Origin: Stramenopiles sp. TOSAG23-6
Taxonomy: Eukaryota
DNA length: 58,906 bases
Direction: 5' to 3'
Assembly (NCBI GenBank): GCA_900128565.1
Contig: LT635917.1
Coordinates: forward strand, 1 to 58,906
Under the pieces are notes generated by a model. That model was not told where the DNA came from and made no database searches. It saw only the letters and a list, made by a program, of their open reading frames with translations. The position numbers and the translations under genes are program-made. Within the stretch, counting starts at the first letter, position 1, and each line of letters begins with the position of its first letter. Below are positions 1-58,906 of the stretch, in pieces.

Positions 1-896
1 GGCTCAAAGAAAGGCATTAAAAAAGGCTGCAGATAAAGCAGCAGAGACAGATAATACAGTACGGGAGCTTCGCAAAGACGATACAATGAAACGCCTTACA
101 AAGTTAGTTGGTGGTATCACTGATCCGGAATTTTCTCAAGCATTAGAAGATACACTTTCCACTCTAGGAAAACCTGGAGGTTACAATGGAAATCCAGATG
201 ACGTATTTGGTGGACCAGGAATAGATCCAAGTGTGTCTGAACCTACAGTGGACGCCAATATAGCAAAAACATTACAAATGTTATCTGAAGCTGGTAAATC
301 TGGAATTGATGGAATGGAACCAGCAGCAGCTGAAGCTTTAGGTGAAGACATGATGAAGAATATTATGCAAGATTTTGAACGCATGGGAGAAAAAGAAGAT
401 TTTCAAAATGTTGTAGACGGAATGATGAAACAATTGTTGGCCAAGGAAATTATGTATGAACCAATTAAAGCCATCTGTGAGAAATACCCTGAATGGTTAG
501 CTGAAAATGAACCTTTTCTTGAGCGTGTTGAGTATGAGCGTACGTTTTCATCACGATTTTTTTTTTTCATAGAAAATTTTGTACCTAACAAAAAAATTCA
601 AAAAAAAAATATTTTTTCGCAATACATGGTTTGGACGTCAATATCAATTTATTCAAAGAATTTGCGCTTGTTACGAAACTCAGCCAGATAATTTTGAGCG
701 ACTTATGGAACTAATGCAGGATATGCAGGAATGTGGACAACCCCCGGCAGAAATTGTCAAAGAATTAGCTCCAGGATTACAGTTTGGGTCCGACGGTATG
801 CCAATAATGCCTAATATGGGTCCTGGGATGCCGTCTTTCCCTCCGATGGATATGCCGAATGTCCCTGGTATGAATCCACAGTGTACCATTTGCTAG
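1..896 (+). CDS. PEX19: Peroxin-19 (5'-partial); exons <1-539, 628-896
   Basis: Frame open from base 2. Pex19 C-terminal motifs LLAKEIMYEPIKAICEKYPEWL and LMQDMQECGQPPAEIV, ending in a CaaX box (CTIC). Removing 540-627 joins the two ORFs as YER-FGRQYQ. Confidence 0.92.
540..627 (+). other. Family intron, GT-AT, 88 nt
   Basis: GTACGTTTTC...AATTTTGTACCTAAC...AATATTTTTTCGCAATACAT; restores the PEX19 frame (C|GG = Arg). Confidence 0.88.
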
Positions 897-4363: not shown

Positions 4364-5863
4364 TTAAAAAGTATTTGGAAATATTTCGTCTGAAATCGAG
4401 TCTCCTAATATGGAATCAACTCCTTTCAATTCTTTCCAGCCTCCATACTTTGCTATATAGAGTACTGCAAGTTGATTAGGAAGAGCTCTAAATACAATTG
4501 CAACATCCATTGGTGTAGACTTAAAATCCATATCCATGATTGGCAAATGAAGTATCTGTGTAGTGTCACGGGCTGTGAAGAATATTAAAAAAAAAAAAAT
4601 GTTACATACAAAATTTGGTACAAAAAAAGTTACATTTGAAATGAGTGATGAAAACGTACATTTCCCTGAAGATCAAACGGGGGCGAGGAAGAACCTAAAC
4701 TAGCCCAACTTGTGATAAAGGCACATTTCGTCTTTCCAAAAAACCCAGGGTATTTGGATGTAATTCCAGAGTATGAACCATCTTGCCGAGGAGAAAGCCA
4801 AGAGCGAACGTCTTCTGGTGTTTTGAATCCTCCTTTATCTGCCAAAATCACTCCTTCATAGTTCCCCCCGTATGTTTTGTGAAAAAAATATTTCAAACAT
4901 TTGAAATCGTTAGGTACGAAATTGCGTACGAAAAAAAAATTATAAATTTGAAATGGAAGAGGACAACATACATGTTGCATCTTGCAATTCTTCCCATCTA
5001 CTACGATAATTTATAGTCATCATTGAAATATCAGCATCACACGAATTAAGAAAATGTGATGTAATAATATCATTTGATGAAACATAAGGCACTACATTGT
5101 TCTCAAGAACTCTACTTTTTGCAATGTCAATTTGCTTTTTATCTACATAAAATGCTAGTGGACGCCCCTTTGGCTTACTAAATACACCTTGAACCATAGA
5201 CTTGATAAATGCAAGGCTATTACCATACTTAAAATCGGATTCTCCCATTAACCTTTTTTCCTGCGTTTTCTCATAATCAAATTTACGTTTAGGTATAATT
5301 TTTGGAATTGGAGATAATTCACCAGAGTCGTTAACAATGTCTGCCAATGAGTTCAAGACTTCGTAGTATGTAAAACCGTCAGCAACTACGTGGCTCATTG
5401 AAAAGATCATGGCAAAACTAGTTTCATCTATTGGAGCCAATAAGCATTTAGTGACAGGCGTTTGATGTTGGAGAATAACTTTCCCCTTCCCTACAGCTAA
5501 TTTTCTGCTCAAATCGACGAGACGAGAATATTCCGTTTTCATACTTAGATCTTGTACTGGAGTTTCTTTGATAGTGAGAATTTTCTCAACGTGAAATCGT
5601 TCAATCACAGAAGGATAGACAAGTTGAACACTTTCGCCTTTAAATTTACATAAAGTTCCACAAATCCAAGGATTTTTTTCAGCAACGAGATACAACCGAT
5701 TTTCAATGTGAGTTATGACGTTGTTAATATTTCCTCTAAAAAATGTTATAGTGCAAATTGGTGGATGTTTAAATTGTCCTGTTGCGCCTGAACTAAGTTC
5801 TCTCTTAAATAGCGGCTCTGCACAGTCATAAGGACAATTTTCAATAGAAATACCGTTTCCCAT
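4364..5863 (-). CDS. CoA-dependent (HxxxD) acyltransferase-like protein; exons 5863-4972, 4871-4660, 4567(or 4555)-4364
   Basis: SHVVADG HxxxD motif; three ORF fragments joined in frame by two family introns. Confidence 0.65.
4568..4659 (-). other. Family intron, GT-GT (92 nt) or GT-AG to 4556 (104 nt)
   Basis: GTACGTTTTCATC...AAATTTTGTATGTAAC...AATATTCTTCACAGCCCGT. The first AG is out of frame; both the positional end (4568) and a later AG (4556) are in frame. Confidence 0.7.
4872..4971 (-). other. Family intron, GT-AT, 100 nt
   Basis: GTATGTTGTC...TTTCGTACCTAAC...CACAAAACAT; joins DAT-YGGNYEG in frame. Confidence 0.82.
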
Positions 5864-8896: not shown

Positions 8897-10526
8897 TTAT
8901 AGTGTTTGCTTCTCGGAATGTTGTTTCTGTTGCTCTTGAATTATCTTTTGTTGTTGTTGTTGTCTAATCATCAAATACTGTGAAAAAGTATGTCAAATTT
9001 GTTAGGTGTTAAGTACAGAATTTGATACAAAAAACATTTTTAAAAAAATTAATGATGAAAATGTACATGTTTCTCATCCGATACTTCAAAACGTTTTCAA
9101 ACAGTACAATTGATTTATGAAGTCTATCGCGCGAAATTTGATCTAAATTAGGAATATTTAGTTTTTTTATTAAATCTTGACGCAACATCTCGAGTTTCTC
9201 ATTACTCATATTAGCAGTGGCATTTAAAGTAGCTTGAGACAAATGTTTAGGATTACTGATTCGAGGATCGGGAAGTCTTTTACTTGCCATCTTCATTTGT
9301 TCTTTTTGATACTCTAAATGTCGCACAATATTCTGTGCATTCTGCAAGCGAGCTTCAGCAGCACGCACAGCAGAATTACACATTGCCATGTGTGCTTGAA
9401 GTTCTTGCTGGCGTTTCTTCCTGTGTAAATATGTATTGTGAAAAAAAATATTTTTAGAATGTTTTTTATTTTTTTTGTTAGGTACGAAATTAGGTACGAA
9501 ATTTTCATCGTAAAAAAAATACATTTGAAATGAATGATAAAAACGTACATACCACAGGGTCAAAGCAATTCTCTAAATTTGCTTTTCTATTATATAGCTG
9601 TTTCTGAACACGAGAAATTCGTTTAGTTTTCTTATTCACATCGTTGCTCTTCGGAATCACATTTTCTTGATTACTCAATCCCGTAGGATTGACACTGCTA
9701 TTATCTCTATGTAAGAATAATCGTAGACTTTCTCTATATTGAATTTTACTTGGAGCTGTAAGTGCAGGTATTTTGGAAAATATTTCAAAAAAAAATTGTT
9801 AGGTACAAATTTTCGTACGAAAAAAAATGGAATTTGAAAAAAACTAAAACATACAGTAAACTCCGAAGCTCCGCGAGAAAATCGGATAAGATTTCGATCC
9901 CGTTCTAAAAGACATGTCAAACGTTTTGCAGGGGGTATGTCAGTATCAGGAACTGTTCCATTGACTTTATCCCATGATCTAGAGAATCTAAACGCTTCGT
10001 CAGTATATCCAATTTCCCTAGGTCGTTTTTCTAATCGTCTACTTCCAGATGCACCTGCCTTTTTACCATCAACTTCAGTGGATTTACCCTTACTCTTACC
10101 GCGACTTTTACCTTTACTTTTGGTCTGGCGCTTTGTCTTTCCTCCTGTTTTTAATCCAGCTCCACCCTGCACACTTCCCCCTCTATCAAGTGATTGACTC
10201 ACTTGAGCTAATTGCTGCGCGCGAGCTAAAGCAGCTTTATCTAATTGTTCTCTTGCCCATTGCATTAATCTAGCCCCATATTCATACATTGTCCTTAACA
10301 TCGGATTAGTTCCATGTAAGCACGCTGCGTTGAAATCATTGTGAAAATCGTTCAACGTTCTGTATCCGCCGTGCTGATTAAGTCTCTGTCTCATTGTGGT
10401 GAGATTCGGGGCTCTTGAGCGTGTCTGTTGATGGACCCCCTTAATATGAAGATCCCACCGACTAAGACGATCAAGACATAGTTTTAATACAATATGAAGA
10501 GTACTGTAGTCGCTTTCAGTTGACAT
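8897..10526 (-). CDS. Uncharacterised protein with a degenerate bromodomain-like N-terminus; exons 10526-9855, 9765-9549, 9430-9067, 8972-8897
   Basis: PNLTTMRQRLNQHGGYRTLNDFHNDF resembles the bromodomain PMDL..I..Y....F..D segment. Continuous frame after removing three family introns; the last exon is less certain. Confidence 0.6.
8973..9066 (-). other. Family intron, GT-TT (94 nt) or GT-AG to 8978
   Basis: GTACATTTTCATC...CTGTACTTAACACCTAAC...TTTTTCACAGTATTT. The positional end gives a Gln-rich 25-codon tail; the AG gives an almost immediate stop. Confidence 0.65.
9431..9548 (-). other. Family intron, GT-AT, 118 nt, with duplicated branch motif
   Basis: GTACGTTTTT...AATTTCGTACCTAATTTCGTACCTAAC...CACAATACAT. 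The downstream CAG would create TGA. Confidence 0.82.
9766..9854 (-). other. Family intron, GT-CT, 89 nt
   Basis: GTATGTTTTA...AATTTGTACCTAAC...AATATTTTCCAAAATACCT. This end opens a 217-nt exon in phase with the next intron; the downstream CAG leads to a stop at 9675. Confidence 0.8.
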
Positions 10527-10786: not shown

Positions 10787-12675
10787 ATGTATATACCCAA
10801 AGTAGCAAATATTAAAAAGCTTGTTGAAAACCCAGCATGTGTAGTCCAAGATATGATTGACGGATTAATTGAACTCAACCCCAATACCCGCCGTTTAGAT
10901 GGTTTCCCTGAAATCAAAGTTGTTGTTCGTGCTGACTGGTGTATTAAAAACAACAAAGTTGCAATAATATCAGGTGGTGGTAGTGGACATGAACCCGCGC
11001 ACATTGGCTTTGTTGGTCAAGGAATGTTAACTGCTGCTGTAGCTGGTGAAATATTCGCAAGTCCCTCAGCGGATGCAGTATTGGCTGCTATTCGTGCTGT
11101 CACTGGCAAGGCTGGAGTTTTACTCATTGTGAAAAACTACACCGGGGACCGCTTAAACTTTGGTCTTGCGGCTGAAATGGCAAAGGCAGAAGGATACAAT
11201 GTTGATATAGTGGTGGTACGTGACGATGCAGCGCTAGAAGGAGATAAACAACGGGGTATTGCAGGGACAGTATTAGTTCATAAAATTGCTGGGGCTTGTG
11301 CTGAAGAAGGCAAATCACTCGCAAGAGTGCGCGAAGTAGCCGCAGAAGCTGCATCACGGGTATATTCAATGGGCGTTGCTCTCAGCACATGCACGAAACC
11401 GGGACAAAATATAAAAACACAGGAGGATAGATTAGCGAATGGAGAGATGGAGCTTGGTATGGGTATGTATGTTTTATTATTTTCAATTTCGATTTTTTTT
11501 CGTACGAAATTTTGTACCTAACAAAAATATTGAATGTAAAATATTTTTCAAAATACATACACGGAGAGCGAGGACGAGGTCGTTCGAATATGCTCCCAGT
11601 GAGTCGTATTTGTACAGTTCTATTAGATACAATATTAGAAAAAATGGAAAACACGACATTTGGGTCAGTTGTTTTAATAAATAATCTAGGAGGTGCAACC
11701 GCGATGGAAATTGCAGTTGTTGCTAAATTTCTTATGGCAGATTTACGAAGCAGAGAATTTCGAGTTTCTCATTTAATTTCTGGTCGATTGATGTCTGCAC
11801 TTGACATGCAAGGTGTTTCTGTCAGTATTCTTCCTCTATCTCGTGAAACTGCGTCATTCATTGAAAGTTACACAGATGCTCCTGGTTGGCCACGAGTTGC
11901 TAAGTTAGCGTCTTCACAGCGTTGTCCTCAAGAAAATTCAATTTCAATTCCAGAGTTCACTACTACAGAAAATATGTATGAAATCCAAAATATGGAAACT
12001 ATAGCACCTCATATTGAATTATTACAAAAAACAATTCGTGCTGTCGCTGAGTCTGTTATATCAAAAGAAGCTATGTTGACACATTGGGATGGTATTGTAG
12101 GCGATGGTGACTGTGGTACTACTTTAAAATTTGGATTTGAATCAGTACTCAATGATTTACCTAGCTATCCTTTGTTATATCCTAAAGGTGCATCTTTAGT
12201 TATGAGAGCTCTTAGTAGATCTCTTAGAGGTATGGGTGGCTCTTCCGGGGCTCTATATGCTATTGGTCTCTCTGCTGCAGAACGTTCGATGTCAAGTGAC
12301 GAAAATCTAGACGAAACAAATATGCAAATGCAAAACTTTTGCTACTGGGTCAGAGCACTTCGCTCAGCGATTCATGCTATAATGTCTCATGGTGGAGCTA
12401 AACTCGGTGATCGCACAATGTTGGATGCTTTATTGCCAGCCATAGATGTTTTGGAGTTGGCAATTGAAAGCAATAATACTTCAGACTGGAAGAAAGCTGT
12501 TAGTGCTTCGGCATCTGCGGCTGAAATTGGAGCGCATTCCACCAAATCAATTCATATTGCTGGTGCTGGAAGGTCCGCATACATTGAACAATCTCATTTA
12601 GGAGGAATTCCTGATCCTGGTGCTATGGCTATTTCCTACATAATGAAAGCAATATCAGACTCTCTTATTTTATAG
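10787..12675 (+). CDS. DAK1: Dihydroxyacetone kinase / triokinase (DAK1+DAK2 domains); exons 10787-11466, 11559-12675
   Basis: SGGGSGHEPAH, VKNYTGDRLNF, ELGMGIHGE (across the junction), GDGDCG, GDRTMLDAL, GRSAY, PDPGA. Confidence 0.95.
11467..11558 (+). other. Family intron, GT-AT, 92 nt
   Basis: GGT AT|GTATGTTTT...TTTTGTACCTAAC...AAAATACAT|A CAC GGA GAG restores GIHGE. Confidence 0.93.
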
Positions 12676-15900: not shown

Positions 15901-17565
15901 GGCTTAGTGCAGCGAATGAGAGAATGCTAAGAAAACGCGTTGCCAAACGTTGGAAAAATCAACATATGACGAAAATGAGGGAAATGTGGAAATCTAATAC
16001 AGAAAGCATTAAAAAAAAACAGTTGGAAGACGCTCGAAAACGCAAAGAAGCTGAACGACAAAGACGTATTGAAGTAGCAAATCGTGAGCACAATGAATGT
16101 TTACAAATGAGAATAGAAGAACATGCACAGTGTAATTGTGGTGATTTGTTCTGGGGCATCGAATTACTAAAGGAAATGATTAGAGATGAATTTGCTGCAG
16201 CACAATCTCATAGAAATAGAATTAATCAAAGAGTCAAAGAAAAACAACACGTTAAATGGCATCACGAATTGCGTCGCAGAAAGAAAGACAAGGCAGAGAA
16301 ATTGGCTGCTGTGTACGCATCGCGACATCGTAATTATATGAATAGATTCTGGAAATCTAAGAACTCGGCGGATATCATTGCTCATAATTGGACTCGCCAA
16401 AAATCAGATGAGAAGATAATAAAAAAACTAGTTTCTGGACCAGTAGGTTTCATTATTCCCATAGATGAACCTTCCCCATTAGATGCGATTCTACCTGATC
16501 TTAAAGGTCGCCCAATGACTGTAATTCCACAACGTGCACGTCGATTACAATCAGTTCACAATGAAAATGTTGATGTCTACTTACCCCCCTTACTTGCAAT
16601 TACACGTTCTTCTCCTAACCCGGCGGACCTGCCTCCAGACACGGTTAGAAGTATCGAAAAAGATGTGTATAGCCCTAGAGTGCGGAGTAGACGAGGTTAT
16701 ACCACGTACAGTAGAAACCCTAAATGGAGGGACGGATTTCGAAGCAGAGCTGAAACATCACGAAAGTCCAAAGATGTTAAGAGTAGGATGTTACACAAGA
16801 GAGCAGCAACATCACGTGCTAAACTCAACACAACCGCGACATTAAAGTCTCCACCGGCATCGCCCACAGCAATACCACAAAATATAGATCTTTCCGTAGA
16901 CATTCCAAAAGAGCTTAAAGCTTTTGTTGAACAAGTAAATATAGTTGTCAATGAAAAAGGAACTCTTTTTGCTGCGGAGATGAATTCTTTACGCCATGCA
17001 TTATCAGATGCTGATGAAGATCAAACACAAACTACAACAGAAGCACAAATTATTAATCAATTGCGAAAGCAAGGATTAGGTATACCACGTAAGTTTGTCA
17101 CTGCAATGTTTGTATCATTAGCAAAGCTAACACATAAAAGTTCAGTAGAAGAAACGCGCATTCAGTATAATAGCCTAATAGACTGTATGAGTAAATTTGT
17201 GGTGCCGATTTCACCAAAACAAAAGAGAAACCTATTTTTGAAAGGTTTCTCAAAAATGCAGTTCGCAGTTAAAAAGGGAGTACATGTACATTTTCAAAAT
17301 TGAATTTCGAATTTCTTTTTTTGTACCAAATTTTGTACCTAACAAAAAACAATTGAAATATGTTTTGACAATACATGTCCCACCAAATGATAAATTGAAT
17401 AAACGTATTTTCAAAATGAAGTATGCGCTTGCAATCAAAGCAGGTATGAAAATAGATCATTCTGATAGCGCTAGTGGTGATGGGGTAAGTAGTATAGAAT
17501 CTGATAGTGGATCATTTTTTAATACAGTGGATGACTTACAAGCTAAAAAAAATAAAATTAAATAA
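12972..17565 (+). CDS. Large WW / IQ / coiled-coil / two cNMP-binding-domain protein; exons 12972-17285, 17377-17565
   Basis: WW-like GWTE..YYIH..T and GWIQ..YFIH..SWDRP; IQ-like IQCMFRMH and CQARFRG; cNMP-like FFFIMKGEG..GNYFGE and FYIIESG..SQFFGQRA. Confidence 0.75.
17286..17376 (+). other. Family intron, GT-AT, 91 nt
   Basis: CAT|GTACATTTTC...TTTTGTACCTAAC...GACAATACAT|GTC; no AG near the 3' end; joins two ORFs in frame. Confidence 0.8.
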
Positions 17566-17779: not shown

Positions 17780-19852
17780 ATGAGTGCTAACACTAATACC
17801 GCGTCGGCTGAAGCAAAATGTATTTCTTTGCCATGTTGGCCTCTCGGTGTACCACATGTTGAGAGCAGAAAGCAGCAGCCGACTCGTATAGACTTGCCTG
17901 ACACACGTAATAAAAATATACGAGCTTCTTCTTTAGATATACAGCACGATATTCCAAGACTACCTAATGCAGAGGAAGAATTTCTCCTTGAACAGGGCAT
18001 CTCACTCCCCGAAGTTGATGAAATAAGCTCTGATGTAGACAATCAAACCTGTTCATGTTGGCCACCTGGTCAACGAGTTGAATCACAAGCTGTTTCTCCA
18101 AATCCAGCGAATATTCATCAAACAAAAGACGTTGTATATAAAGGCATTCCATTGAAAGAGAAAGAATCTTACACAGATTCAGATGGTGTCGCGAAAGTTC
18201 AAGAAGAATTGTGGTTAATATTTACTTTTTATGCTATCCATGGGAAACCGCAAAAGCCCCATATGATGACAGAAAATGAATGGATTCGATTTCTTGTTGA
18301 CTGTTGGTTACTTCCCATAAGTTCGGTGAATAAAAAGTCGCTGCGTAAACGACGCTCTGTAAAATCTCAAAACTTAATGAAGGGAAAAGGATATCCCAAA
18401 TTATTGAGTCCACAGGTGGCTTGTTTATTGTATAAACGTGCTGTAAATTATCGATCCGACGGTATGTACGTTTTCATCATGAATTTTAATTTTATTTTTT
18501 TCGTACGAAATTTTGTACCTAACGATTTTTTATTTTATTTTTTTTCACAATACATGTATTTTCAAAACTTTTTGAATGCTTTGATATTCATTGGTTCGAA
18601 ACTTTATAGTAAAGAATCCAGTGACAATGGTCTTGGAAAATTAACTGCAAATGGTGCATTTTCATTAATCCTCCAGCGGCATGTTTTACCGAAATGCCTC
18701 GCACGGCGTAGAATTATTCCAGTCGTTCATGTACATTTTAATTTTAATTTCGAATTTATTTTTTTTTTCGTACCCAAATTTGTACCTAACAAAACATTTG
18801 CATATAAAATATTTTTCACAATACATCATATTCTTGCATCACACGATGTGACACAACTTTATCGATACTACAAAAATCCCCTCCTAGAAATATTTAATTT
18901 GTATACAGTGGATAAGGGAGAGTTTTTTTCTCGTATTGATGAGAGATACAAAGAAAAAAGTACAAAAAATGGTATAAAATTTAAATTGGGTGTCGGCGTG
19001 AGGACTATGGGTAACGAGAAATGGTGGAAATTTTGTAATGACTTTGGCTTATCTAAATTACTATCCCACTGTAAACTGAATGAGATTTATCTTAATGTGG
19101 GCTCCATTGTTCAAGTAAAAGACAAAATTGTACAGGAAATGTTTTTTGAAGGATTTTGGGAAGCTTTCATTAGAATATCTCAGTTGGTATATGATGACCC
19201 ATCTGCTTCATTTGGTGTTTCTTTTATACGCCAAATTCGTGCAGTATTTCTCATGATGTGGAGATCTATTGAAGAAGGTGCAAGAAATACCAGGAGAGAG
19301 TATAATTCTATACGTTGTGGAAGAAATTGTTCGGACGAAGTGAAACCTTTAGCTGCTAAAATATTTGGAGATGCATTCTTGAATGATTGGCGATCAACTA
19401 ATTTTCATGATTATGGCGAATACAAACGCCTTGGAGTTTACTCTTCGGATTGTGTTCTTTCAAGAATGACTGAAGATAATGCTCGTGTATCACTCAATAC
19501 TTCTAATATGATAAAAGAACAATTACTAATTTCTGGGCGAAATAAAACAAAGCAGATCATCGAAGACACAAAGTTTCAAAATGATTTACAAATAGGATCA
19601 GACGTTGAGCTAGCACGTTTTGTAGAGGATAGAAAAAATAGTGTTTCCGAAATAGCCAACTTTTCAAAAATAATCCCGAATGATAAATTATCGAATCACA
19701 ATGTAGATAAAAGAGGTAGAACAAAACTTGTAAATCATTCATCAAAGCAGCGACAGCTTGAATCTGTACGACTTGTAGGTAGATTACCCGGTAGAAATTT
19801 TACACCTCTAACTGAAACGGATAAAAAGGGACGATGGTCTATTTTGACATAA
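17780..19852 (+). CDS. Uncharacterised protein with degenerate EF-hand-like helices; exons 17780-18465, 18556-18730, 18827-19852
   Basis: Long ORF with repeated L..IF..Y / M...EW..F..D segments; two stop-free family introns inside. First ATG at 17780. Confidence 0.6.
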   Translation: MSANTNTASAEAKCISLPCWPLGVPHVESRKQQPTRIDLPDTRNKNIRASSLDIQHDIPRLPNAEEEFLLEQGISLPEVDEISSDVDNQTCSCWPPGQRVESQAVSPNPANIHQTKDVVYKGIPLKEKESYTDSDGVAKVQEELWLIFTFYAIHGKPQKPHMMTENEWIRFLVDCWLLPISSVNKKSLRKRRSVKSQNLMKGKGYPKLLSPQVACLLYKRAVNYRSDGMYVFIMNFNFIFFVRNFVPNDFLFYFFSQYMYFQNFLNALIFIGSKLYSKESSDNGLGKLTANGAFSLILQRHVLPKCLARRRIIPVVHVHFNFNFEFIFFFVPKFVPNKTFAYKIFFTIHHILASHDVTQLYRYYKNPLLEIFNLYTVDKGEFFSRIDERYKEKSTKNGIKFKLGVGVRTMGNEKWWKFCNDFGLSKLLSHCKLNEIYLNVGSIVQVKDKIVQEMFFEGFWEAFIRISQLVYDDPSASFGVSFIRQIRAVFLMMWRSIEEGARNTRREYNSIRCGRNCSDEVKPLAAKIFGDAFLNDWRSTNFHDYGEYKRLGVYSSDCVLSRMTEDNARVSLNTSNMIKEQLLISGRNKTKQIIEDTKFQNDLQIGSDVELARFVEDRKNSVSEIANFSKIIPNDKLSNHNVDKRGRTKLVNHSSKQRQLESVRLVGRLPGRNFTPLTETDKKGRWSILT
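18466..18555 (+). other. Family intron, GT-AT, 90 nt, in-frame and stop-free
   Basis: AT|GTACGTTTTCATC...TTCGTACGAAATTTTGTACCTAAC...CACAATACAT|G. Confidence 0.8.
18731..18826 (+). other. Family intron, GT-AT, 96 nt, in-frame and stop-free
   Basis: CAT|GTACATTTTA...AAATTTGTACCTAAC...AATATTTTTCACAATACAT|CAT. Confidence 0.8.
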
Positions 19853-26185: not shown

Positions 26186-26418
26186 TTTTCTCCTCGCGTT
26201 GAACTCTCAATGACGCATTTTCCCTGAAAAGTACTCTGCAGCGAAATAGATAATTCAATAATGTATCTTTATGCTATTTAATTGTATTTGTTTTGATGTG
26301 GAGTGTTTTTTTTTGTAGGATTAGATAAGTTTGAACTTCAAATCTTTTTTAGATTTTGTTGGTTAATCTTCTTCTTTTCTCCCGGAATTTGAGTCAAAGA
26401 GAATCGTTGCATTATGAA

Positions 26419-26443
26419 TGTGAAGCGCAAATTGCGCTTCACA
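26419..26443. repeat. Perfect 12-bp inverted repeat TGTGAAGCGCAA-A-TTGCGCTTCACA
   Basis: Read directly in intergenic DNA. Confidence 0.85.
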
Positions 26444-26516
26444 AAATTTATTGTCGAAATTTTGTACATAGTAGAATTCATTTAATGTGATATTTCATAT
26501 TTATAATATACATGTT

Positions 26517-26626
26517 GTATATTTTTCGTTAATTTAATAAAAAGACATCTTGTTTCTTTTGTTTTTTTTTGGTACGAAATTTTGTACCTAACAAAAACTT
26601 TTACAACATATTTTCTTACTATACGT
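26517..26626 (+). repeat. Non-coding copy of the intron family
   Basis: GTATATTTTT...GGTACGAAATTTTGTACCTAAC...CATATTTTCTTACTATACGT between RPLP1 and YIP1. Confidence 0.65.
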
Positions 26627-26856
26627 ATATAAGTTATTTCTTGTTTATTGAATATTTATTGATAGTATGCTTGACACAATTTTAATTATTGGAGCTTGTA
26701 CTTTCCCATGTTTATTAATTCTGTTTTTATGATTTTTATGATTTGTTGCGTAGAAATGAATTGCACAGATGTCACAAGTTGACTAAGTTGAATTACAACA
26801 CTAACAACATAGCTCTGAGACAGCTAAGAGATACTGAGATTACTTCACGTTTGTGC

Positions 26857-34255: not shown

Positions 34256-34417
34256 TGTTTCAATTGAAGCATTTCATTTTTGGTATTTGAAAGATTTAGT
34301 GATAAAGTTACACACGATAATCAAATGTCATCCATACACAATCTTTGGTACCACAAAGTGTCGTGCTATATATTGATACGGAATATTAATAATTATGTCT
34401 TGGCTTCTAAATCTTCG

Positions 34418-34447
34418 TTTTTTTCATAGATAATTTCGTACCTAACA
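34418..34447 (+). repeat. Degenerate non-coding core of the intron family
   Basis: TTTTTTTCATAGATAATTTCGTACCTAAC between convergent genes; no clear donor or acceptor. Confidence 0.5.
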
Positions 34448-34464
34448 TCTACGAAGTGTAATAC

Positions 34465-37400
34465 TCATTCCCAATCACTTCCCTCACTCTCTCCATCGTC
34501 AGAAAAATCACTTTCTGCAACATCTGAATACTTTCCTTCATCCTCATCATCATCAGAATCACACAAATTTGTGTAACTGATAGGTTTACGATTTCGACCA
34601 CCTCGCCGCGATGATTTCTCAGTATCCATTGATCTTTCATCAATAATATCACCATCGTCATCATCGATGACGTCATCAACATTAAATTCTTCTTCACTAG
34701 AAGATGTATTTTGGAAGAATATTTCAATTTGTTTTTCGTTAGGTACAAAATTTTTATAAAAAAATAAATTCGAAATTGAAAAAAAAATAAAACATACATA
34801 ATATTTCAATAGATTTCTTTTTTGCTACTTTCTTTTTTGATTTCACTTTGACTCTTTTTGCCTTTGGAGTCTTTGCTGTTGGTGATTCAGTTGATACATT
34901 TGGTTTCTGGTACAATTTTACTCGTTCAATCAAATCGGATTTCTTACCTTTTGTTGATATGCCATACTCTGCACAATATGTTTTCAAGACTGCAACTTTC
35001 ATTTTTTTCAATTCACCATTAGTGAATATTTTTTTCTGTTTAAATCCATCGCTTTGCTGAGACTTTGACTGAGGAGTATGAATTGTGAAAAAATACTATG
35101 TAGAAAAAAATCGTTAGGTACGAAATTTCGTATGAAAAAAAATTAGGTAAAAAAATTATCATGAAAACGTACATCCGCCTTATCAGTTTTAAAATTACTG
35201 TGCGATCGCTTTGTTGGCTTCGAAATCATTGGTGAAAATGTGTTTTCAGACACTGCAATTTGAGCCATTCGCCTGTTCTATGAAAAATATTTTTTTTTTT
35301 TACCGAAAATAAAAAAAATTGTTAGATACGAAATTTTCATAGTATAATAAATCAAAATTCAATTTTGGAAAACATACATGGATAATGGAAGATCATTGAA
35401 GTCTGAATCATCGGAGGAGTCATCGGATATATTCACGGTTTTTTTCATGATTTTTTTTGATTTTTCAGGATTTGGAATTGAAAGCGATGAAATATTAGAT
35501 GTTGGAGATTTTTTCGTTATTTTTGGTTCTTTTTTTACTTTTGGTTCAAAAAATTGAGAAATTGGTTTTGTGTTGGCTTTTGCTTTTACATTCTCGTTAC
35601 TTGCTTCTTCTTTTACTTTCTCTTTTTTTACTTTTGGTTTCTTCTTCACGACTCTCTTGCGTCTTTTCTTTTTATTACCATTTTGAGCAGCTTCCTTCGC
35701 TTCTCTTTCTGCATCTGCATCGGCTTGCATAGCATCTTCAAAACGTATAATAGATGCTTCTAAAGCAATGAGATCGGCCTCCCATAATTCCTGAATAGAA
35801 GTTTTTTGAAGTAATCGCATTACAGCAGTTTTTTCATCAAGTTCCTTTTTCAACTTTTGGACTTTTTCGACAGTAAGTGACCGAATATTCATATTCAGCA
35901 TATAATCGTACCCACGCTCACGAGTTTGCTTTTCTTTTTCTTCATCATCTTTCTTCTTTTCCTTCTTTGAAGCTGGTTGAATAAGCACATAACCATTAAT
36001 CTTCATTTCAGCCACGAGTTCGGCCTCTTTCCTCCTGGAAATTACAAGTTTACCTTCAACGACTTCAGTCACAAAACGCATTTGGTTTGCAAGACGTGTG
36101 TGTTCAGCTTTCAAAGTCTTTAATAAATGGCGTTTGCGGTGTCCATACATACGTAAACGTGTTTTATAGAAGCGGTCAATAATACTTGAAATAGTTTTAA
36201 ATTTCGTGACTTTTTCAGACACAGTTTCACTTTCAATCTCTGGCATGGCCAAAGGTGCATTATCAACGATCATAGAATCCATCACAGGAACAATAGCCGG
36301 AGCTTCTTCATTTTCATTAAATTCGGTCGCTGGTGGAAGACCCGGTTGGACTAGAATCATATTCGAATTGGAAAGTTTTGAAGTCATCTTAAAATCACTT
36401 AAAAATGTTGCATTTTTCAATGGTTCTTCTCCGTAATCTACAGTAGGTGCTAGAGTTATAGTGAAACTGACGGTTGCATCTGTATGGTTTTCGTTATAGT
36501 CAACAACGAGTTGCTTTCTAGGCTTACTATCAGTCTTTTTCTTTCCCTTCGATTTCGATTTTGATTTCGATTGATTCTTTTCAGGTTCGGATAAAACTTC
36601 GAGTAATTCTTTGAATTTTTGAGTCCACATTCCGACAGGAAGTTCAGAAATATGAAGGATTCCTCCAGGACCTGGTTCGATCACTTCGACCAAGCCTTTA
36701 CACATAAACCCAAACGCATTCTTTTTCTGAAATACTTCTGTCGTGCCTTGAAAACCACGATACCAGGGAACAAGGTTTTTAGCTACAGTAATAGAATCAC
36801 CTCCTGATAGTAATTGACGAAGACAATTGATAATATCTTTGGGATTGTAATTAGGAATTTCTGTAGACCAACCCGTACCAATACCAGCACATCCATTAAC
36901 AAGCACAAGTGGAATAACTGGACAATAGTATGAAGGTTCAACACTTATACCGTCATCATCAAGGTAATCAAGTATAGCATCATCATCGGGATGAAAAATA
37001 TGTCTTGTAATTTCAGCTAATCGAGTAAAAATATAACGAGGTGACGCTGAATCTTTTCCACCTTGAAGACGTGTACCAAATTGACCACCAGGATATAAAA
37101 GGTTGAGATTATTAGAACCAACATAATTTTGTGCCATACCCACAATTGTACCCATTAACGACGCTTCACCATGATGATACGCAGCATGCTCAGAAACGTA
37201 TCCTGCAAGCTGTGCTACTTTCAGCTCTTTGGTTAATTTACGTTTAAAACAAGCAAAAAGAACTTTTCGCTGAGATGGTTTGAGTCCATCAATGAGGTTC
37301 GGGATGGCTCGTTTTACAGAAGCCTGAGAAAACAAAACAAATTCCTTATTGAAAAAATCTTTGTATGTCATTTCTTTCATGGAAAAATCTACGTACGTCC

Positions 37401-39788
37401 CAGCTTTCACTGCACCAATCCAATCCTTCCTTGCATGTATTTTGGAAAAATATTTCAAAAAAAAACAATTAAATTTGTTAGGTACAAAATTTCGTATGAA
37501 AATGTTTTTTCGAATTAAAAAAAAAATAAAACATACATCAGCATTATCTTTTGAAAAGGCAAGTTTAATCAGTTCAGCATCACCATCAATCCATTTGAAT
37601 GGGATGACATTAGTATCAAGATTAGCAAAATATTGCTTTGCTTCTTTAGAAGTTGAAGTACCAAGACCTTTATAATACTTGATATGCCAACCTTTCTGTT
37701 TTGGTAAAGTTTCATTGCCTTCCTCATCAATTCCAAGAATATTACGAGACTTCCAAGTCTCATACTCAGGAACTGTATGAAACAAAATTTGCTTCTTATT
37801 TCGTGTTACTTTTACAATCGGTGTTATAAATTCTTTGATAAAACCTGGAACTTGCATTAAAGAGGGATTAAACCAGTGTAAGAAATTCAAAAGTAGCCCT
37901 TTAATATGAGATCCATCGTAGTCTTGATCAGCCATAATTAAAATTGAGCCATACCGAAGTTTCTTAATATTTTCTGTGTCATACGAGACATCTCGTCGAA
38001 TTCCCATAATTTTAATAATGTTTTGGATTTCATCATTATTTGATACCTGAGAATGCTTTGCTTCGCGTACATTTAAAGGCTTCCCTATAATAAAAAAAAT
38101 GTGTACAGTTTTGAAATTTGTTAGGTACAAAATTACATACGAAAAAAAAATCAAATTGAAATGATAAAAACATACCTTTTAAAGGAAAAACACCATAAAA
38201 ATCTCTGCCTACAATGGAAAGACCAGAAACGGCAAGTGTTTTTGCAGAATCTCCCTCAGTCAGAATAAGCGTACATATGTAATTTTAGGAAAATATTTCA
38301 AAAATTGATTTTTTTTGTTAGGTACGAAATTTTGTATTAAAAAACATGGAAATGTATGATGATGAAAACGTACTGATAACTCTTTGAAGTACCAGCCTTA
38401 TTTGCATCATCTAATTTCGGAATCCCACGAATTTTTTTCAACTTTGTCGCTTGCTTACCAACGTTACGAGACCGAAAATTAGCAAATTGCATTGCCGCAT
38501 CCACGATTCCCATACTCTTTGACACAACTTTCTTCAATATTGCAGGAGACAAAATTGCAGAAGAACCGAAATCTTTATGCTGAGTAGTCAGAGCTTCTTT
38601 TGTCTGTGAATCAAATGATGGATTTTCGATAAGGCAATTGATAAAAACACAAATGAAGTTTTTTGTTGCTGCTTTACTTAACGCTTTGGCTTTCTTATTT
38701 TTTCGTGCACATTCTTTTTGAATAACAGAAACGAGTTGATTCACAATAAAATCAACATGAGTTCCACCTTTAGTAGTAGCAATACTGTTCACAAATGAAA
38801 CTTGTTCGAAACGTGTTCCATCACTAGGACAAATCGAAATTTCCCAACGATCATTCAAGCGTTCGTGAAGCATTTTCGTAGATCGGCCCTCTGCAGCCAA
38901 CGTCGAGAGACAGGATCGTGAACATAATTTCACATAATCTGGAAAGTTTTTGATGTGAAGTTTCTCGCCATTAAGATACACACGAACAGATTTATCAGTA
39001 ACACCGGCTAAATCATAAGTACGTTTTTTGAAAATATTACATATTTCTTCATTTAATTCAAACATTCCAAATTTTTCAAGGTCTGGTTTGAAAGTTATCT
39101 TTGTATACGATTGAGTTTTATGAGCATCTGTGATTACAGGCGACTCTGTCTTTGTCATATTGTTACGAAAAACTTGAACGTATTTCTTTTTCAATTTTGA
39201 GTCAACTGTTTCAACAATAAACTTTGTGGAGAAAATATTAGCAAGCTTAGCACCAAAGCCATTTCGACCGCCTGTGACTTTTTTCTTATCATCGTTGTAA
39301 TTTGAACCAGTAAGAAGATTTCCAAAAATTAATTGAGGTACATACATTTTCTCTTTCTTATGCATCTGTACAGGTATTCCCTTCCCATTATTGGCGACGG
39401 AAACAGTCCCAGACTCGCGGTTAATGCAAACTTTGATCCACGTCATCCCTTCTGGATCACGCTGTTTATTGTCAGCTGCATTTACGAGAATCTCATCAAA
39501 TATCTTAAAAAGAGCTGGAACATATGTACACGTCTTGCGAACTAGGCGACCTCCTTTATCTGCTAAATCTTCAAAATTATCTGCTGCAGGAACGTCCGCG
39601 TTTTCACTTGATGTTGGGAGAACAGCGGGGACATCCGTAAAAGTCCACGTATCATACGTAGTTGGTTGAACACTACCAACATAAGTATCTGGGCGTAATA
39701 GAACATGCTCTCGCTGATTTACTTTTTTGTAAATATTTTCTACCCTATTTGGAGTCAATGTCTGGCGTCTGTTGAAGTTTTCCGACAT
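34465..39788 (-). CDS. TOP2: DNA topoisomerase II with C-terminal SAP domain; exons 39788-38374, 38276-38176, 38084-37537, 37434-35378, 35272-35173, 35077-34798, 34703-34465
   Basis: EHVLLRPDTYVGS, DEILVNAADN, GGRNGFGAK, TEGDSAK, PLKGKPLNV, DQDYDGSHIKG, YYKGLGTS, DGLKPSQRK, YHHGE, SPRYI. Six family introns restore a continuous frame. Confidence 0.97.
34704..34797 (-). other. Family intron, GT-AT, 94 nt
   Basis: TAT|GTATGTTTT...TTTTGTACCTAAC...CCAAAATACAT|CT opens the acidic TOP2 tail; the nearby TAG gives another frame. Confidence 0.8.
35078..35172 (-). other. Family intron, GT-AT, 95 nt (in-frame CAG 9 nt downstream also possible)
   Basis: GAT|GTACGTTTTC...TTTCGTACCTAAC...CACAATTCAT|ACT. 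Confidence 0.75.
35273..35377 (-). other. Family intron, GT-AG, 105 nt
   Basis: AT|GTATGTTTTC...TTTCGTATCTAAC...AATATTTTTCATAGAACAG|G; the second AG is the in-frame one. Confidence 0.82.
37435..37536 (-). other. Family intron, GT-AT, 102 nt, in-frame and stop-free
   Basis: Removal converts FSKDNAD[34 aa]ARKDW into the conserved FSK..AD.RK.W helix. Confidence 0.9.
38085..38175 (-). other. Family intron, GT-AG, 91 nt
   Basis: AAAG|GTATGTTTTT...TTTTGTACCTAAC...ATTATAG|GG restores PLKGK. Confidence 0.92.
38277..38373 (-). other. Family intron, GT-AT, 97 nt
   Basis: CA|GTACGTTTTC...TTTCGTACCTAAC...AAAATTACAT|A restores SYQCTLILTEGD; contains an in-frame stop. Confidence 0.92.
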
Positions 39789-43027: not shown

Positions 43028-43340
43028 CGTAGCGGTTATCTGTGTCACCTGTTTCCGTAAAATATATGATTTACTGATTTACTCAGTGAACGGTAGTATA
43101 CACAGAATATCCTTGAAAGATTTTTCGGTTACATCATGTGAAGCAGATTATAGCTCTTACGTACAAAATTTTGGTACGAATCTTTTTTTGAAACGTTTTG
43201 TACATGTCCTATGCTTCTGATATATTTTTTTCATTAAATTTTTCAATTAGGATTTTTCTTTTGTAGTCAGTCTAGATCTGTGCATCACTACCAAAACCAC
43301 TAATAGTACCTACTACACTACGAGACGTATCATCATCATC

Positions 43341-44559
43341 ATGAATAACTCTTTTCATGAGAAACCCTCTCTGTATACTGTAGCAACACATTCTGTGGAA
43401 AGTTTAGAAAATTTTTGTAGTACTTGGGATAGCTCTAGTGATTGCTTTCCTGATAAGCTTCTAGCTCCACTTCCTTTGACAACTCCAAATCCAACCAAAA
43501 TCCAAAAAAGAAAACAACACGATGACACATCTTCGTACACTTTTGAAGGGGAAAACATATTGAAGACGAAAAATGTATCACGTCGTCTAGAAAAATGTGC
43601 TTCAAAACTTAAAATACCTATAAAATTTTTNTCTCCGGCCGCTTGGCGTGGTGTTATGCGGAATGTACCAGCCTCGTACCGTGATGAATCACGTAAAGCT
43701 TTGGCAAAACAAACTTTTATGAACACAATTGTTGCGAAAGCATCTAGTAAGGAGCATGTTATTTTAATTTCCAGAAATAAGCCTCGAATGGTAGGTACTG
43801 GTCGCATTCTTGTCCTTGTTGGGCTAAAATACCGAGGAAACGTTGGAAGTATTGTCCGGTCTGCCGTGCAAGCAAACGCATTTGATGAAATATATTATGT
43901 GGAAAATAGATCGTCAGATGAGGAGTATCTCAATTTGACAACTCTTGTGAAGCGAAAAGATGGTAAAACTGGAGAGGATGAATCTGAACATGGTATTCCT
44001 GGTTATGAACTCAAAACAAAAAAACGAATGCGGGTGACTGATAAAGAAGTGGACTACTTTTCTATTTTTAATGCTCCACTGATTCCGTTTCGAAGATTTA
44101 AATCCGTGGGTGATTTTATGAGTGTTGCCTCTAATGAATTAGTGACGGTAAACAGTTCTTGTAATTCTGGTGTTTCTAATATTCCGAATGAAAACTTAGT
44201 TACAATGAAAACTACAAACGGGCGGGTAATGGTTGCATTAGAATGCTGTGACTCTGCTTTCGACATGTATGTTTTCAACGTTCAAAATTTCAAAAGCAAA
44301 TTGTACCAAATTTTGTACCTAATTTTTTTTTTCTTTAAATATTTTCTCAAAATACATTTACAGTGAAGATGCTAAGAATATTTTAGCCAAGGAAGATTTG
44401 TATCTTGTCATGGGTGCTGAAGATATCGGTGTGCCCATGGAAATAATGAATTCTTGTAGTGCTTTAGTAAAAATACCAGCATTGTCCGCTTCAGTCAATG
44501 TTTCGTGTGCTTTTAGTGCAGTACTGACTATTCTTAAAGACTTAGATTACAATAAATAA
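43341..44559 (+). CDS. SpoU/TrmH-family (SPOUT) RNA 2'-O-methyltransferase; exons 43341-44266, 44358-44559
   Basis: GNVGSIVRSA; second exon LVMGAEDIGV and VKIPALSASVNVSCA. Confidence 0.85.
44267..44357 (+). other. Family intron, GT-AT, 91 nt (in-frame CAG at 44363 also possible)
   Basis: CAT|GTATGTTTTC...TTTTGTACCTAAT...AATATTTTCTCAAAATACAT|T. Confidence 0.78.
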
Positions 44560-54157: not shown

Positions 54158-56973
54158 ATGCTGCCTGGCACCCCAAGGGAATTACGGATTGCCATTTCAA
54201 ATGCAAAAAATAAATTGAGTGAATTACAAACAAATTTGCCGGATAGATTAAAAGAGCTTAAACATTTAAAGAATGAGTTATCCAAGGAGCAACTACAAAC
54301 TGAAGACTTGTGTGAAGACTTCTTGGATAAAACACTTGAAGCAAAGTCAAAATCAGCAGAGAAGGCTAAAGTAAATCGCGTAACATGGGATTGTCCTCGT
54401 AGAAGAATGAAAAATCGTTGGATTGGCACAGATCCTCATCCAAAAAGTGTTGATGCAATTGTAAAGAAAAAAACTGAGGAGACTATAAAAATAATAGAAA
54501 GACTCCGCTCAGAGCTATCCTTTTCACTATCGCGTGAGAAGGGAGTCACTTTACGAACGATCAAAATGATGGAACAAATTCGTGCTAGTATTAATTTGCA
54601 TAATATTACTAGAAGAAGTACTTTATTGACTCAAAGATTAGCTGACCTTTCTCAGAAAAAGGAGAACGATGATAAAAATGTAGAATTATCTAAAGCCAGT
54701 TCTTCAGACTATCATATCGAGACGTTAAAAGATAGAAAATATGAAAACCATTGTGAAATATTATTAAGGTATACTGAAATGCTGGACGATCCTATTTTCA
54801 TTGTGTTGTCAAGATTTGACGAAATAAATGATGAATGGGAAGAAATAGGACGAAGTGAGGTGTCTTCACAAGTTGACGGCACATCTCCGAGCTTTCTAAG
54901 AACAACTGTAATACCGACTGATGGTCGATCATACCCAATTAATATTAGTTTATATAGCATACAAATGGATGATAGGATTGCCATTAAGTTCGTAGGTTCT
55001 ACAGAAACCTCTCTTGCTGAGCTTGTGGATGATAATGGTCGTATGTTTTCATCATAATTGTTTTTACCTAAATGTTTTTTTCGTACGAAATTTTATACCT
55101 AACGATTTTTTTTTCAAATATTTTTTAGCATCGCATATGAACTGCATTTGTTTATTTATAAAAGAATTGGTGTCGAAGATTCGAAATCTGGAATCCTTTC
55201 ATTGCGTCTTTTACCAAACATGTTTAAAAAAATAAAGCATTACGACTTTGTTGGAACTCATCGAGAATGTACGTTTTATTTTTTTTTTCAATTTCGATTT
55301 TTTTTTCGTACGAAATTTTGTACCTAACGATTTTTTTTGAAATATTTTCCCAAAATACATGTGCAACATTTTGTTTATCTATACCAGATGTTGAACAGAT
55401 TACCCCGGGACTTCGTTTAATAGAACAAACTCAAGAATCTCCATTTTCCATCATCGTACCATTCCAACTTCTCGCAATATTTATCGAAAGGATAAAGAAA
55501 ATGATTGGATTCTTGAAAAGTTCAAATTTTGAAAATGTAACAACGAAACAGAAAATTCAAATTTCTGTAACTTTGAAACATCAATCAAATTTATTACAAG
55601 AATATCAAAATTATCTAAATGAATTAAGCGAATATAAACAACCTTTTCTTAAAACTGTTGATTATATACAAAACAAAACAGCACTGCGATTTGTTCCAAC
55701 AAATTGTCATTTAAATTCTATGCTACTTATTAATGGTAGTAACACAGAAACTATTTGCACTGTCACAGCTGGATTTCCTGCTGCTCATTCAGTAGGATTT
55801 CGTACAGGAGGTCTCCTTTCCCTCTGGGAGAAATTTCATGAAGCATCAGAAAAGTATAAAGATAAAGATGTCTTCAGTATCGGAAAAGAAGGACCATCGT
55901 ATAAAATAGACAAAGAAGTCTCAATAGCTAATATACATGATCTTGCTACACAAAGCATCAAAATAGCACGGCGTAGGGATGTCGTGTTTTCTCAGGCAAT
56001 GTCCATATTGATTTCAAGTTTTCAAGCACAGCTACGAGTGATGTCAGAAAAATCAGATTCATCGTATGCACGGTGGTGGAAGCGGCTGGTAGATGTTGGG
56101 TTTCTCATCCATTTCAGTACTTTTATTGAACTTGATGAAGACAGCAGAGCTCAACTGGAAGACATTGTAGATATAGTAAACTGCCTTCAAAATGTTCACA
56201 TACTTGTAACACAAAAAGAAGCACCAATGAACAGTGGTATTTGTATTCAATGCAAAAAAAAAGATTACGTTATAGAATTTTGGTCACCGGAAATAGATTG
56301 GAGTCGAGTTCCACATAAATATTTAAAAAGTCACCGAATTTCTATATTTCCAGTTCTTACAGCTCTAAATGTACGTATTGATAGGCTTGGCAAACATGTT
56401 GAAGCTTCTATGCTCTTGCAGAAAATTAATGAGACTGCTTTAACAGCATTAAAAGACTATCAAGATCAGATTCTGGAAGCAAATATTGGTGTAGCGGTTG
56501 CTGCTATGTTGCAGCCTAACTCGCATGGTATTGTGGAAGATGAAAAGTCAAGGAATGAAAAGGTACAATTATTAATTACGGAAATGAAAAATATACCAAA
56601 GCAGCCAGTACATAATTCCAAACAGACGTTTCGAGATTCTAGTGAATTACACGACGATGTTGTCGACTCTCTAATATTATTTCAAAATATAGCAATTCAA
56701 AGTGATTCAGGTCATGTGATTCTATGTGTAGATGGCATTGACATTTCTCACATGGTATTAACATTAGAGAATGCAGTATTTTTAGTTGAAAAGTATGGAC
56801 TATCACCAGAAGAGTTTAGTAAAATAATGACAGCGATAAGAAGTCGAGGTGTATCTCCTACAATATGCGAAAAAAATAGAAATTTACCTTTTTACAGATT
56901 TAGTCAGGATACCTCAGAGCATTTACCTCCATTTTTACGACCACCGAGAGAATCAATAAAGCAAAGTTCATAA
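54158..56973 (+). CDS. Inositol polyphosphate 4-phosphatase-like protein (C2 + INPP4 domain) with degenerate catalytic motif; exons 54158-55040, 55137-55268, 55361-56973
   Basis: C2-like EIGRSEV..SPSF; INPP4-like FVPTNCHL, GFPAAHSVGFRTGGL, DVVFSQA, VTLE-like LTLE; CVDGIDI in place of CKSAKDR. Confidence 0.75.
55041..55136 (+). other. Family intron, GT-AT, 96 nt
   Basis: C|GTATGTTTTC...TTTTATACCTAAC...AATATTTTTTAGCATCGCAT|AT; the TAG at 55128 is out of frame. Confidence 0.8.
55269..55360 (+). other. Family intron, GT-AT, 92 nt
   Basis: AAT|GTACGTTTT...TTCGTACGAAATTTTGTACCTAAC...CCCAAAATACAT|GT. Confidence 0.85.
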
Positions 56974-58843: not shown

Positions 58844-58906
58844 ATGTATTCTGGAAAAATATTTCAAAAAAAATCTAAAAAAAATTGTTAGGTACAAAAT
58901 TTCGTA
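58844..58906 (-). other. Family intron, 3' part only (ends CCAGAATACAT)
   Basis: TACGAAATTTTGTACCTAAC...AAATATTTTTCCAGAATACAT; truncated by the window end. Confidence 0.75.

Follow-up and report, generated by a model that had tools for sequence, protein, structure and literature searches.

The DNA considered here, called the window throughout, is the whole of contig LT635917.1 from Stramenopiles sp. TOSAG23-6, a stretch of 58,906 nucleotides (nt) that carries on its minus strand a gene for the type IIA topoisomerase TOP2. The first intron of this gene, at 38277..38373 (the target), starts with GT and very probably ends with AT instead of AG. An earlier interpretation made from the letters alone (the sequence-only reading) had described it as a single odd intron, but the phenomenon is larger than was stated, as the target belongs to a dispersed family of GT-AT introns. 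All six introns of the TOP2 gene belong to this family, and the gene is organised as follows:

34465..39788, minus strand: whole TOP2 coding region, seven exons, 1579 amino acids (aa), with a C-terminal SAP domain
38374..39788, minus strand: exon 1, ATPase and transducer domains
38277..38373, minus strand: intron 1, the target, 97 nt, GTACGT...TTACAT, family member with a non-AG 3' end
38176..38276, minus strand: exon 2, 101 nt, (Q)CTLILTEGDSAKTLAVSGLSIVGRDFYGVFPLK(G), in which the Toprim domain begins, including the acidic E-G-D motif
38085..38175, minus strand: intron 2, family member with a canonical end, GTATGT...TTATAG
37435..37536, minus strand: intron 3, family member, GTATGT...ATACAT; removal restores DNAD/ARKDW
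35273..35377, minus strand: intron 4, AG-ending family member, AT/GTATGT...AACAG/, skipped in RNA contigs of runs X1 and X2
35078..35172, minus strand: intron 5, family member, GTACGT...ATTCAT, skipped in a 574-nt RNA contig of run X1
34704..34797, minus strand: intron 6, family member, GTATGT...ATACAT, skipped in RNA contigs of runs X1 and X2

The 1.4-kb open frame of exon 1 matches human TOP2B with an E-value of 2.7e-120 and yeast TOP2 with 1.6e-118, and in the spliced model of 1579 aa Pfam detects HATPase_c (PF02518), DNA_gyraseB (PF00204), Toprim (PF01751), TOPRIM_C (PF16898), DNA_topoisoIV (PF00521) and SAP. The model thereby contains the ATPase, the transducer, the Toprim domain with its acidic E..DxD residues and the breakage-reunion domain that characterise type IIA topoisomerases, and both conserved motifs, CTLILTEGDSA and IMADQDYDGSHI, are present. 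It resembles the usual eukaryotic type IIA enzymes in its full domain set; the C-terminal SAP domain (PF02037, E 3.7e-12, window 34798-35077, minus strand) is additional here and absent from the public gene model discussed below, while the relative P0007 likewise has PF02037 beside its TOP2 domains. Residues around the target were counted in 244 TOP2 homologues carrying the motif out of 288 proteins. CTLILTEGDSA is exact in 195 of the 244, and the span from LDDAN to CTLILTEGDSA measures 25 residues both in the model and in 230/234 homologues, P0002 and P0003, the nearest relatives, among them. The sequence ...H/K-K-CTLILTEGD is kept in relatives of 58-62% identity; P0122 (62% identical) is intron-free at the target site and P0121 reads into a different intron just past the Cys.

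Three elements of the target are recognisable:

38368..38373, minus strand: donor GTACGT, with CA as 5' flank instead of the usual AT
38317..38328, minus strand: branch-like family core TTCGTACCTAAC, with the predicted branch A 41 nt before the end of the intron
38277..38280, minus strand: 3' end ACAT, of which CAT is invariant in 13/13 copies

Exon 1 ends with ...AGT TAT CA at 38374 and the intron starts with GTACGTTTTC at 38373. When exon 1 is read on without splicing, ...SKSYQYVFIIIHFHVF (YVFIIIHFHVF) is followed by a stop, so that the low end of the open reading frame lies at 38337 and the stop that the sequence-only reading placed inside the intron is indeed there. The intron ends with ...CCTAAAATTACAT at 38277, and exon 2 starts with A TGT ACG CTT ATT CTG ACT GAG GGA GAT, which encodes CTLILTEGD. 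Direct reading of the sequence also bears out that the first AG past the branch motif falls within the GAG codon of the Glu, 22 nt inside exon 2; combined with the GT donor, its use would remove 119 nt (2 modulo 3) and break the frame. In the frame of exon 2 the last stop, TAA, lies 9 nt 5' of the Cys codon and the intervening AATTACATA contains no AG, and because there is no AG between this stop and the Cys codon, no canonical acceptor can keep CTLILTE. Excision of exactly 38277-38373 (97 nt) joins ...DDANKAGTSKSYQ to CTLILTEGDSAK; the junction links CA to A to form CAA (Gln), and CTLILTEGD is restored in an intact frame precisely as had been claimed.

The architecture of the target is more than chance, as 13 complete copies in the window share it, the invariant 3' CAT included. 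The 12-mer core TTYGTACCTAAC has 22 window matches with at most one mismatch, compared with 0.54 expected, and 22 was reached in 0/100 shuffles. A search with nhmmer and a family profile yielded 24 matches at E<1e-3 in 58.9 kb, comprising 13 complete ACAT-type copies, six AG-ending copies, four partial copies and one cut by the window end. Host genes are, among others, TOP2, Pex19, one with a Dak1 domain and one resembling SpoU methylases. The 13 complete copies are 88-118 nt long, share a mean pairwise identity of 70%, start with GTAYRTTTT and end with ...AATACAT (ATTCAT, AAACAT and TTACAT in single copies). When they are aligned, G1, T2, A3, T6, T7, T9, the block GTACCTAA, C-3, A-2 and T-1 are invariant, positions 4 and 5 are Y and R, and the first four exon bases that follow show no conservation. 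The predicted branch A is separated from the 3' end by 33-47 nt, and the 21 nt preceding the terminal ACAT are 48-76% pyrimidine. From the branch to the 3' end 12/13 copies contain no AG, and the single internal AG is skipped in RNA; this stretch has the look of an AG-exclusion zone, with the reservation that the copies are of common descent. In 13/13 copies removal from GT to ACAT connects an upstream open frame of at least 35 codons with a downstream one of at least 62, whereas the first AG past the branch is out of frame in seven of the 13, including the target, and in the remaining six would drop 2-18 codons or, at TOP2 intron 5, add six codons. Exact-match scans with a 35-mer from exon 2 and a family 20-mer gave 0 matches in metagenome_contigs, and the 20-mer gave 0 in viral_contigs.

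Parts of window:33001-43000 occur in 16 public sequencing runs, all with small shares, of which 13 are recorded as RNA and come from 7 studies. Contigs of the seawater metatranscriptomes X1 and X2 (one study) and X3 and X6 (two others) were placed on window:26001-46000 at 90% likeness, and they show three splice joints in TOP2:

34703->34798: skips 94 nt, one contig each in X1 and X2 with sides of 23 and 31, plus-strand ends AT..AC
35077->35173: skips 95 nt, X1, side 99, plus-strand ends AT..AC
35271->35377: skips 105 nt, X1 and X2, the canonical sibling AT/GTATGT...AACAG/

On the gene strand the AT..AC joints read GT..AT, and since an AT stands before the GT as well, the position of each is ambiguous by 2 nt. 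The 574-nt X1 contig runs with 1 mismatch from TOP2 exon 4 through exons 5 and 6 to exon 7 across the joints 35077/35173 and 35271/35377, and therefore the exons encoding the SAP domain belong to the TOP2 transcript. The same contig leaves the internal AG at -20 of intron 5 unused, and the addition of six codons there is thereby ruled out. What is established is the family, its invariant ends, the choice of GT..AT over a shifted cut on grounds of homology (see below) and, within the TOP2 transcript, the precise removal from RNA of one AG-type and two ACAT-type members. The sequence-only reading had looked to RNA for its check, and this turned out in part: two ACAT-type siblings in the same gene are skipped at GT..AT, while the joints listed include none across the target. 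It had also held that a second intact TOP2, with this locus unexpressed, would refute it; the TOP2 exons are covered by contigs of all four runs. The listed contigs near the target stop short of it (X6 38402-38616, X1 38542-38971, X2 37922-38083 plus 33 unplaced letters), and the absence of a listed joint speaks neither for nor against the cut. Translated transcripts spanning the target junction reach at best 61-62% and 58% identity in the shorter and near length classes, and the longer class gave only P0001. Since no RNA joint across the target was obtained, we infer its cut from the siblings and from homology; on this basis the target is very probably removed at GT..AT, and it is, with a good degree of confidence, a genuine intron of an intact and expressed TOP2.

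Very many metatranscriptome contigs lie on the family parts at 37340-38006, 34672-35338 and 26001-26667 (for example, 53 X1 contigs at 37466), and chimeric joints between family copies occur in RNA contigs. Summed depths are not copy numbers. Family-like sequence is common in these RNA assemblies, from other loci or from unspliced transcripts.

The public gene model shows what follows when the intron is forced into the GT-AG class. P0001, the sole near-identical protein among 5.8 billion, is identical to the spliced TOP2 model at 1179/1184 aligned residues; its source label begins with GSMAST32, which would suggest a MAST-3-like marine stramenopile as the host lineage. At the target it reads ...SKSYQYVFIIIHFH/GDSAK, with YVFIIIHFH in place of CTLILTE, and ARK at intron 3 as well as the 200 C-terminal residues are missing from it too. 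The sequence-only reading had foreseen that splicing onto the AG of the Glu codon costs CTLILTE including the Toprim glutamate, and P0001 has exactly this loss; GT-AG-only modelling of TOP2 therefore loses the catalytic glutamate. It might be argued that the cell splices as P0001 does, canonically onto the AG in the Glu codon, and that a TOP2 without its Toprim glutamate is a dead copy or pseudogene, since the P0001 reading is the only in-frame GT-AG solution. However, this solution retains nine intron-encoded residues and deletes CTLILTE from a motif that most homologues keep exactly, while elsewhere the gene has an unbroken frame of 1579 aa in which no domain is missing, and its exons appear in RNA contigs of four runs. 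In addition, sibling ACAT introns are cut after CAT in RNA even with an AG nearby, and P0001 drops the C-terminal 200 residues that RNA contigs tie to the transcript of TOP2 exon 4. We regard canonical splicing at the target as extremely improbable. Apart from the family introns, P0001 shows 12 further in-frame internal gaps in conserved TOP2 sequence, 9 of which start with V (GT codon), which suggests that spurious GT-AG introns were called inside exons.

A different question is the exact position of the cut, as in 11/13 copies removal at GT..AT and removal of a unit shifted 2 nt upstream at both ends yield identical mRNA; the 5' AT is absent only in the target (CA) and in the Pex19 copy at 540-627 (GC). 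Two copies in other genes carry protein-domain information on the junction:

540..627, plus strand: sibling intron in Pex19, 5' flank GC, decides between GT..AT and the 2-nt shift
11467..11558, plus strand: sibling intron in the Dak1-domain gene, Pfam profile 201, one codon, then 203, colinear

Shifted ends would read CA..AC in the target and mostly AT..AC elsewhere, an AT-AC-like class that would give ...SKSY-I-CTLILTEGD in TOP2. Such a class has some appeal, because A as first and C as last base form a known compatible terminal pair and the RNA joints permit the 2-nt slide. The Pex19 copy allows a distinction: the match of its exon 1 to PF04614 reaches profile position 171 at residue 76/79 and exon 2 resumes at position 178 with residue 3, so that there is room for exactly one junction codon, which is CGG (Arg) after GT..AT removal and Trp after the shifted cut. 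In a MAFFT alignment of 100 Pex19 homologues of at least 180 aa, taken from 150 listed of 812 found, this column holds R 59, K 19, N 14, S 3, Q 1, gap 4 and W 0; the closest relative among those listed, P0289, reads EEYERFGKQYQ. The shifted cut would thus place in Pex19 a Trp found in none of the homologues, whereas GT..AT gives the majority residue. In TOP2 the residue before the Cys is Q, as produced by the GT..AT cut, in 15 of the 244 homologues, and Ile, as produced by the shifted cut, in 0. Moreover, the AG-ending sibling is cut in RNA between AT and GT, which fixes the donor site of the family directly before GT, and the 3' AT is present in 13/13 copies while the 5' AT is missing in 2/13, as would be expected with the former in the intron and the latter in the exon. 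A cut displaced by 2 nt is accordingly very improbable, and removal at GT..AT is supported by four independent lines, namely the sibling RNA joints, Pex19 homology, the RNA-fixed donor and the spacing of the TOP2 motif.

The dispersed, introner-like family carries its own yeast-like donor (GTAYRTTTT) and branch motif (TTYGTACCTAAC), and with the boundaries placed at GT..AT a mechanism can be proposed. The 5' cut would fall directly before GTAYGT and the 3' cut directly after CAT, and at the target the joint would read ...AGTTATCA/ATGTACG..., restoring ...SKSYQ-CTLILTEGDSAK at the start of the Toprim domain. The major (U2-type) spliceosome would recognise GTAYGT and the CTAAC-type branch and ligate after a CAU 33-47 nt downstream, and the family would have spread by intron-precise insertion with a preference for sites after AT. 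A donor of the U2-type, GT with a GTRNGT-like extension, is found in 13/13 copies, and the predicted branch point is of the CTAAC/TACTAAC kind, lies tens of nt from the 3' end and is followed by a T-rich stretch. The terminal AG of U2-type introns is replaced by CAT in 13/13 ACAT-type copies. From these signals the family appears to work like a U2-type intron, yet outside the canonical GT-AG class. Scans of the window with Rfam and for tRNAs gave no match, so no small nuclear RNA gene lies there.

The same GT..AT boundaries could also be served by the minor (U12-type) spliceosome, which tolerates variable 3' terminal dinucleotides. The donor GTATGTTTT shares G-T-A-T..T-T-T with the general U12-type consensus [G/A]TATCCTTT, and the branch ACCTAAC differs in one base from the consensus CCTTAAC. 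In the available part of a preprint on Physarum, GT-AT accounts for 17% of 1,014 non-canonical U12-type introns (10.1101/2020.10.12.336362). However, none of the 13 donors has the TATCC at +2 to +6 of an [AG]TATCCTT donor, all being GTAYRT, and the distance between branch A and 3' end is 33-47 nt, compared with the 9-12 nt given for U12-type introns in that part of the preprint (10.1101/2020.10.12.336362). The T-rich stretch between branch and 3' end and the existence of AG-ending siblings with the same donor and branch are likewise traits of the major type. Removal by the minor spliceosome is therefore unlikely, if less so than the shifted cut.

It has been proposed for euglenids and Amoebophrya that paired inverted-repeat ends bring exons together irrespective of the terminal dinucleotides, and the ends of the present family do form a short AT-rich inverted repeat of 6-9 bp, (AT)GTAT..ATAC(AT) followed by TTT/AAA, in which 82% of cells pair as opposed to 26-65% when slid. 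This pairing shows no covariation, with 0 pairs changed on both sides, the fold energy is no better than that of shuffles in 6/6 copies folded (z -1.08 to +0.47), and neither the target nor the Pex19 copy has a terminal stem, so that an RNA stem is not required. The strongly conserved GTAYGT donor and CTAAC branch point instead to ordinary spliceosomal recognition. We consider structure-guided excision the least credible of the explanations, with hardly any probability left to it, and the inverted repeat of the intron ends may be a DNA-level relic.

Several points weigh against GT..AT removal by the major spliceosome. The joints listed include none across 38277-38373 (27 further joints lie beyond the listing), both ACAT-type RNA joints carry the 2-nt ambiguity and stem from one study (X1, X2), and the copies are related by descent, so that counts such as 13/13 are not 13 independent events. 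As L (12) and M (6) precede the Cys in other TOP2s, a hydrophobic Ile would be chemically possible at this position. A terminal U opposite G1 fits neither of the known pairings of first and last intron base, G-G and A-C. Furthermore, GT-AT introns are known mainly from the U12 type, as in the accessible text on Physarum (10.1101/2020.10.12.336362). That the major spliceosome of this lineage routinely accepts CAU for a proliferating family, which spreads by intron-precise and duplication-free insertion preferring AT, is put forward tentatively, as a possibility that we judge rather doubtful than probable.

How the family spread can be considered in comparison with introners, to which it corresponds in having many similar copies in unrelated genes. 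AT stands at both flanks in 11/13 copies and is the only repeated flank. If this AT were a duplication, the Pex19 gene would have had an ancestral W at the junction, a residue seen in 0/100 homologues; judged from these sequences, the inserted unit seems to be the spliced unit, without duplication. Intron-precise insertion without target-site duplication is the trace expected of reverse splicing and reverse transcription and not of cut-and-paste transposition. The introners of Micromonas, Aureococcus, Symbiodinium and others have GY-AG boundaries with rare GC or GA donors and often 3-9-bp target-site duplications, and both surveys start from annotated introns, according to the parts of these papers that were at hand (PMC9860276, PMC12130899). 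The present copies resemble the introners described there in being many, short, similar and placed in unrelated genes, in their co-orientation with the host, their own splice signals, what may be short terminal inverted repeats and the unchanged length of the mRNA. In contrast, their 3' end is CAT, and AT, in 11/13 copies, is the only repeated flank.

Tunicate non-canonical boundaries are mostly AG-AC-like, while the family described here departs from GT-AG in the last base only. It nevertheless resembles the non-canonical introns of Fritillaria and other tunicates in that non-GT/AG boundaries are, in the accessible sections of that report, lineage-wide and handled by a modified major spliceosome (PMC13326754). 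The introner elements of Amoebophrya are similar as well, being repeated introns with inverted-repeat ends and short direct repeats across the boundaries that are non-GT-AG and defeat annotation. As far as the text at hand goes, however, they have no dominant dinucleotide pair, the place of their splice sites with respect to the hairpin is variable and components of U1 are apparently missing (PMC7789003), whereas the family in the window has a sharply defined, yeast-like donor, branch and 3' CAT. The U12-type GT-AT introns of Physarum share the terminal dinucleotides, yet the obtainable part of the preprint gives them a donor [G/A]TATC[C/T]TTT and a branch distance of 9-12 nt, as opposed to GTAYRT and 33-47 nt in the window (10.1101/2020.10.12.336362). 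The comparison supports a classification of the family as a variant of introner-like non-canonical introns with GT-AT ends. A published description of the present GT-AT intron family was not found in the main texts, supplementary tables aside, of the literature on non-canonical introns, introners, GT-AT boundaries and MAST-3; for the motif itself, the 25 papers listed out of 2,389 had matches of the primer type only. The accessible part of the MAST single-cell genome paper mentions introns in its methods only (PMC5778133), the words intron and splice are absent from the Incisomonas paper (PMC12614181), and a 2026 single-cell preprint gives intronic fractions only.

If the proposed reading is true, an RNA-supported GT-AT class with a major-type donor and branch would widen the range of 3' splice sites usable by the U2-type spliceosome, and AG-ending and AT-ending siblings of one family would offer a natural system to study how the last intron base is read. 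The introner question would gain a case whose ends suggest that the inserted unit is the spliced unit. Gene finders restricted to GT-AG damage genes here, as the public TOP2 model is missing the catalytic Toprim motif, three residues at another family intron and the C-terminal 200. Should about 24 copies per 59 kb be typical, which is an extrapolation, the gene counts, domain inventories and pseudogene calls of such genomes deserve a re-check, and if a CAU-accepting spliceosome and a spreading family are both real, a sizeable share of the genes of this lineage would be mis-modelled in public sets.

The remaining members of the family in the window are the following:

4872..4971, minus strand: ACAT-type sibling intron, nhmmer match with frame check
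9431..9548, minus strand: ACAT-type sibling intron, longest copy, 118 nt, branch motif tandemly duplicated (TTCGTACCTAAT TTCGTACCTAAC)
17286..17376, plus strand: ACAT-type sibling intron, nhmmer match with frame check
18466..18555, plus strand: ACAT-type sibling intron, nhmmer match with frame check
18731..18826, plus strand: ACAT-type sibling intron, nhmmer match with frame check
44267..44357, plus strand: ACAT-type sibling intron, candidate alternative with an in-frame AG 6 nt downstream
55269..55360, plus strand: ACAT-type sibling intron, top match to the family profile
4581-4659, 8979-9066, 9768-9854, 35273-35377, 38085-38175 and 55041-55128: AG-ending copies sharing donor and branch, for four of which the AG end is read from sequence only
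8718-8795 (plus strand), 26553-26624 (plus strand), 29840-29928 (minus strand) and 34416-34465 (plus strand): partial or degenerate copies with AT-rich flanks, apparently non-coding
58844-58905: the 24th match, a further ACAT-ending copy cut by the window end

The partial copies with AT-rich flanks may have inserted at non-coding sites and would then be informative on mobility. Directly after the copies at 44267-44357 (plus strand) and 9768-9854 (minus strand) stands TTACAG; in the latter the ACAT has been lost (ATACCT) and the downstream AG is probably used, and in the former the end after CAT and the AG 6 nt on are both in frame. These two copies look like a transition between the two types of 3' end. 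Most copies also contain a near-palindrome, TTTCGTACGAAA, just 5' of the branch motif (e.g., 55296-55316, plus strand), which resembles the branch block (GTAC). Adjoining TOP2, an unbroken open frame of 1007 aa that is rich in Lys and Glu and coiled-coil-like occupies positions 40055-43078 on the minus strand.

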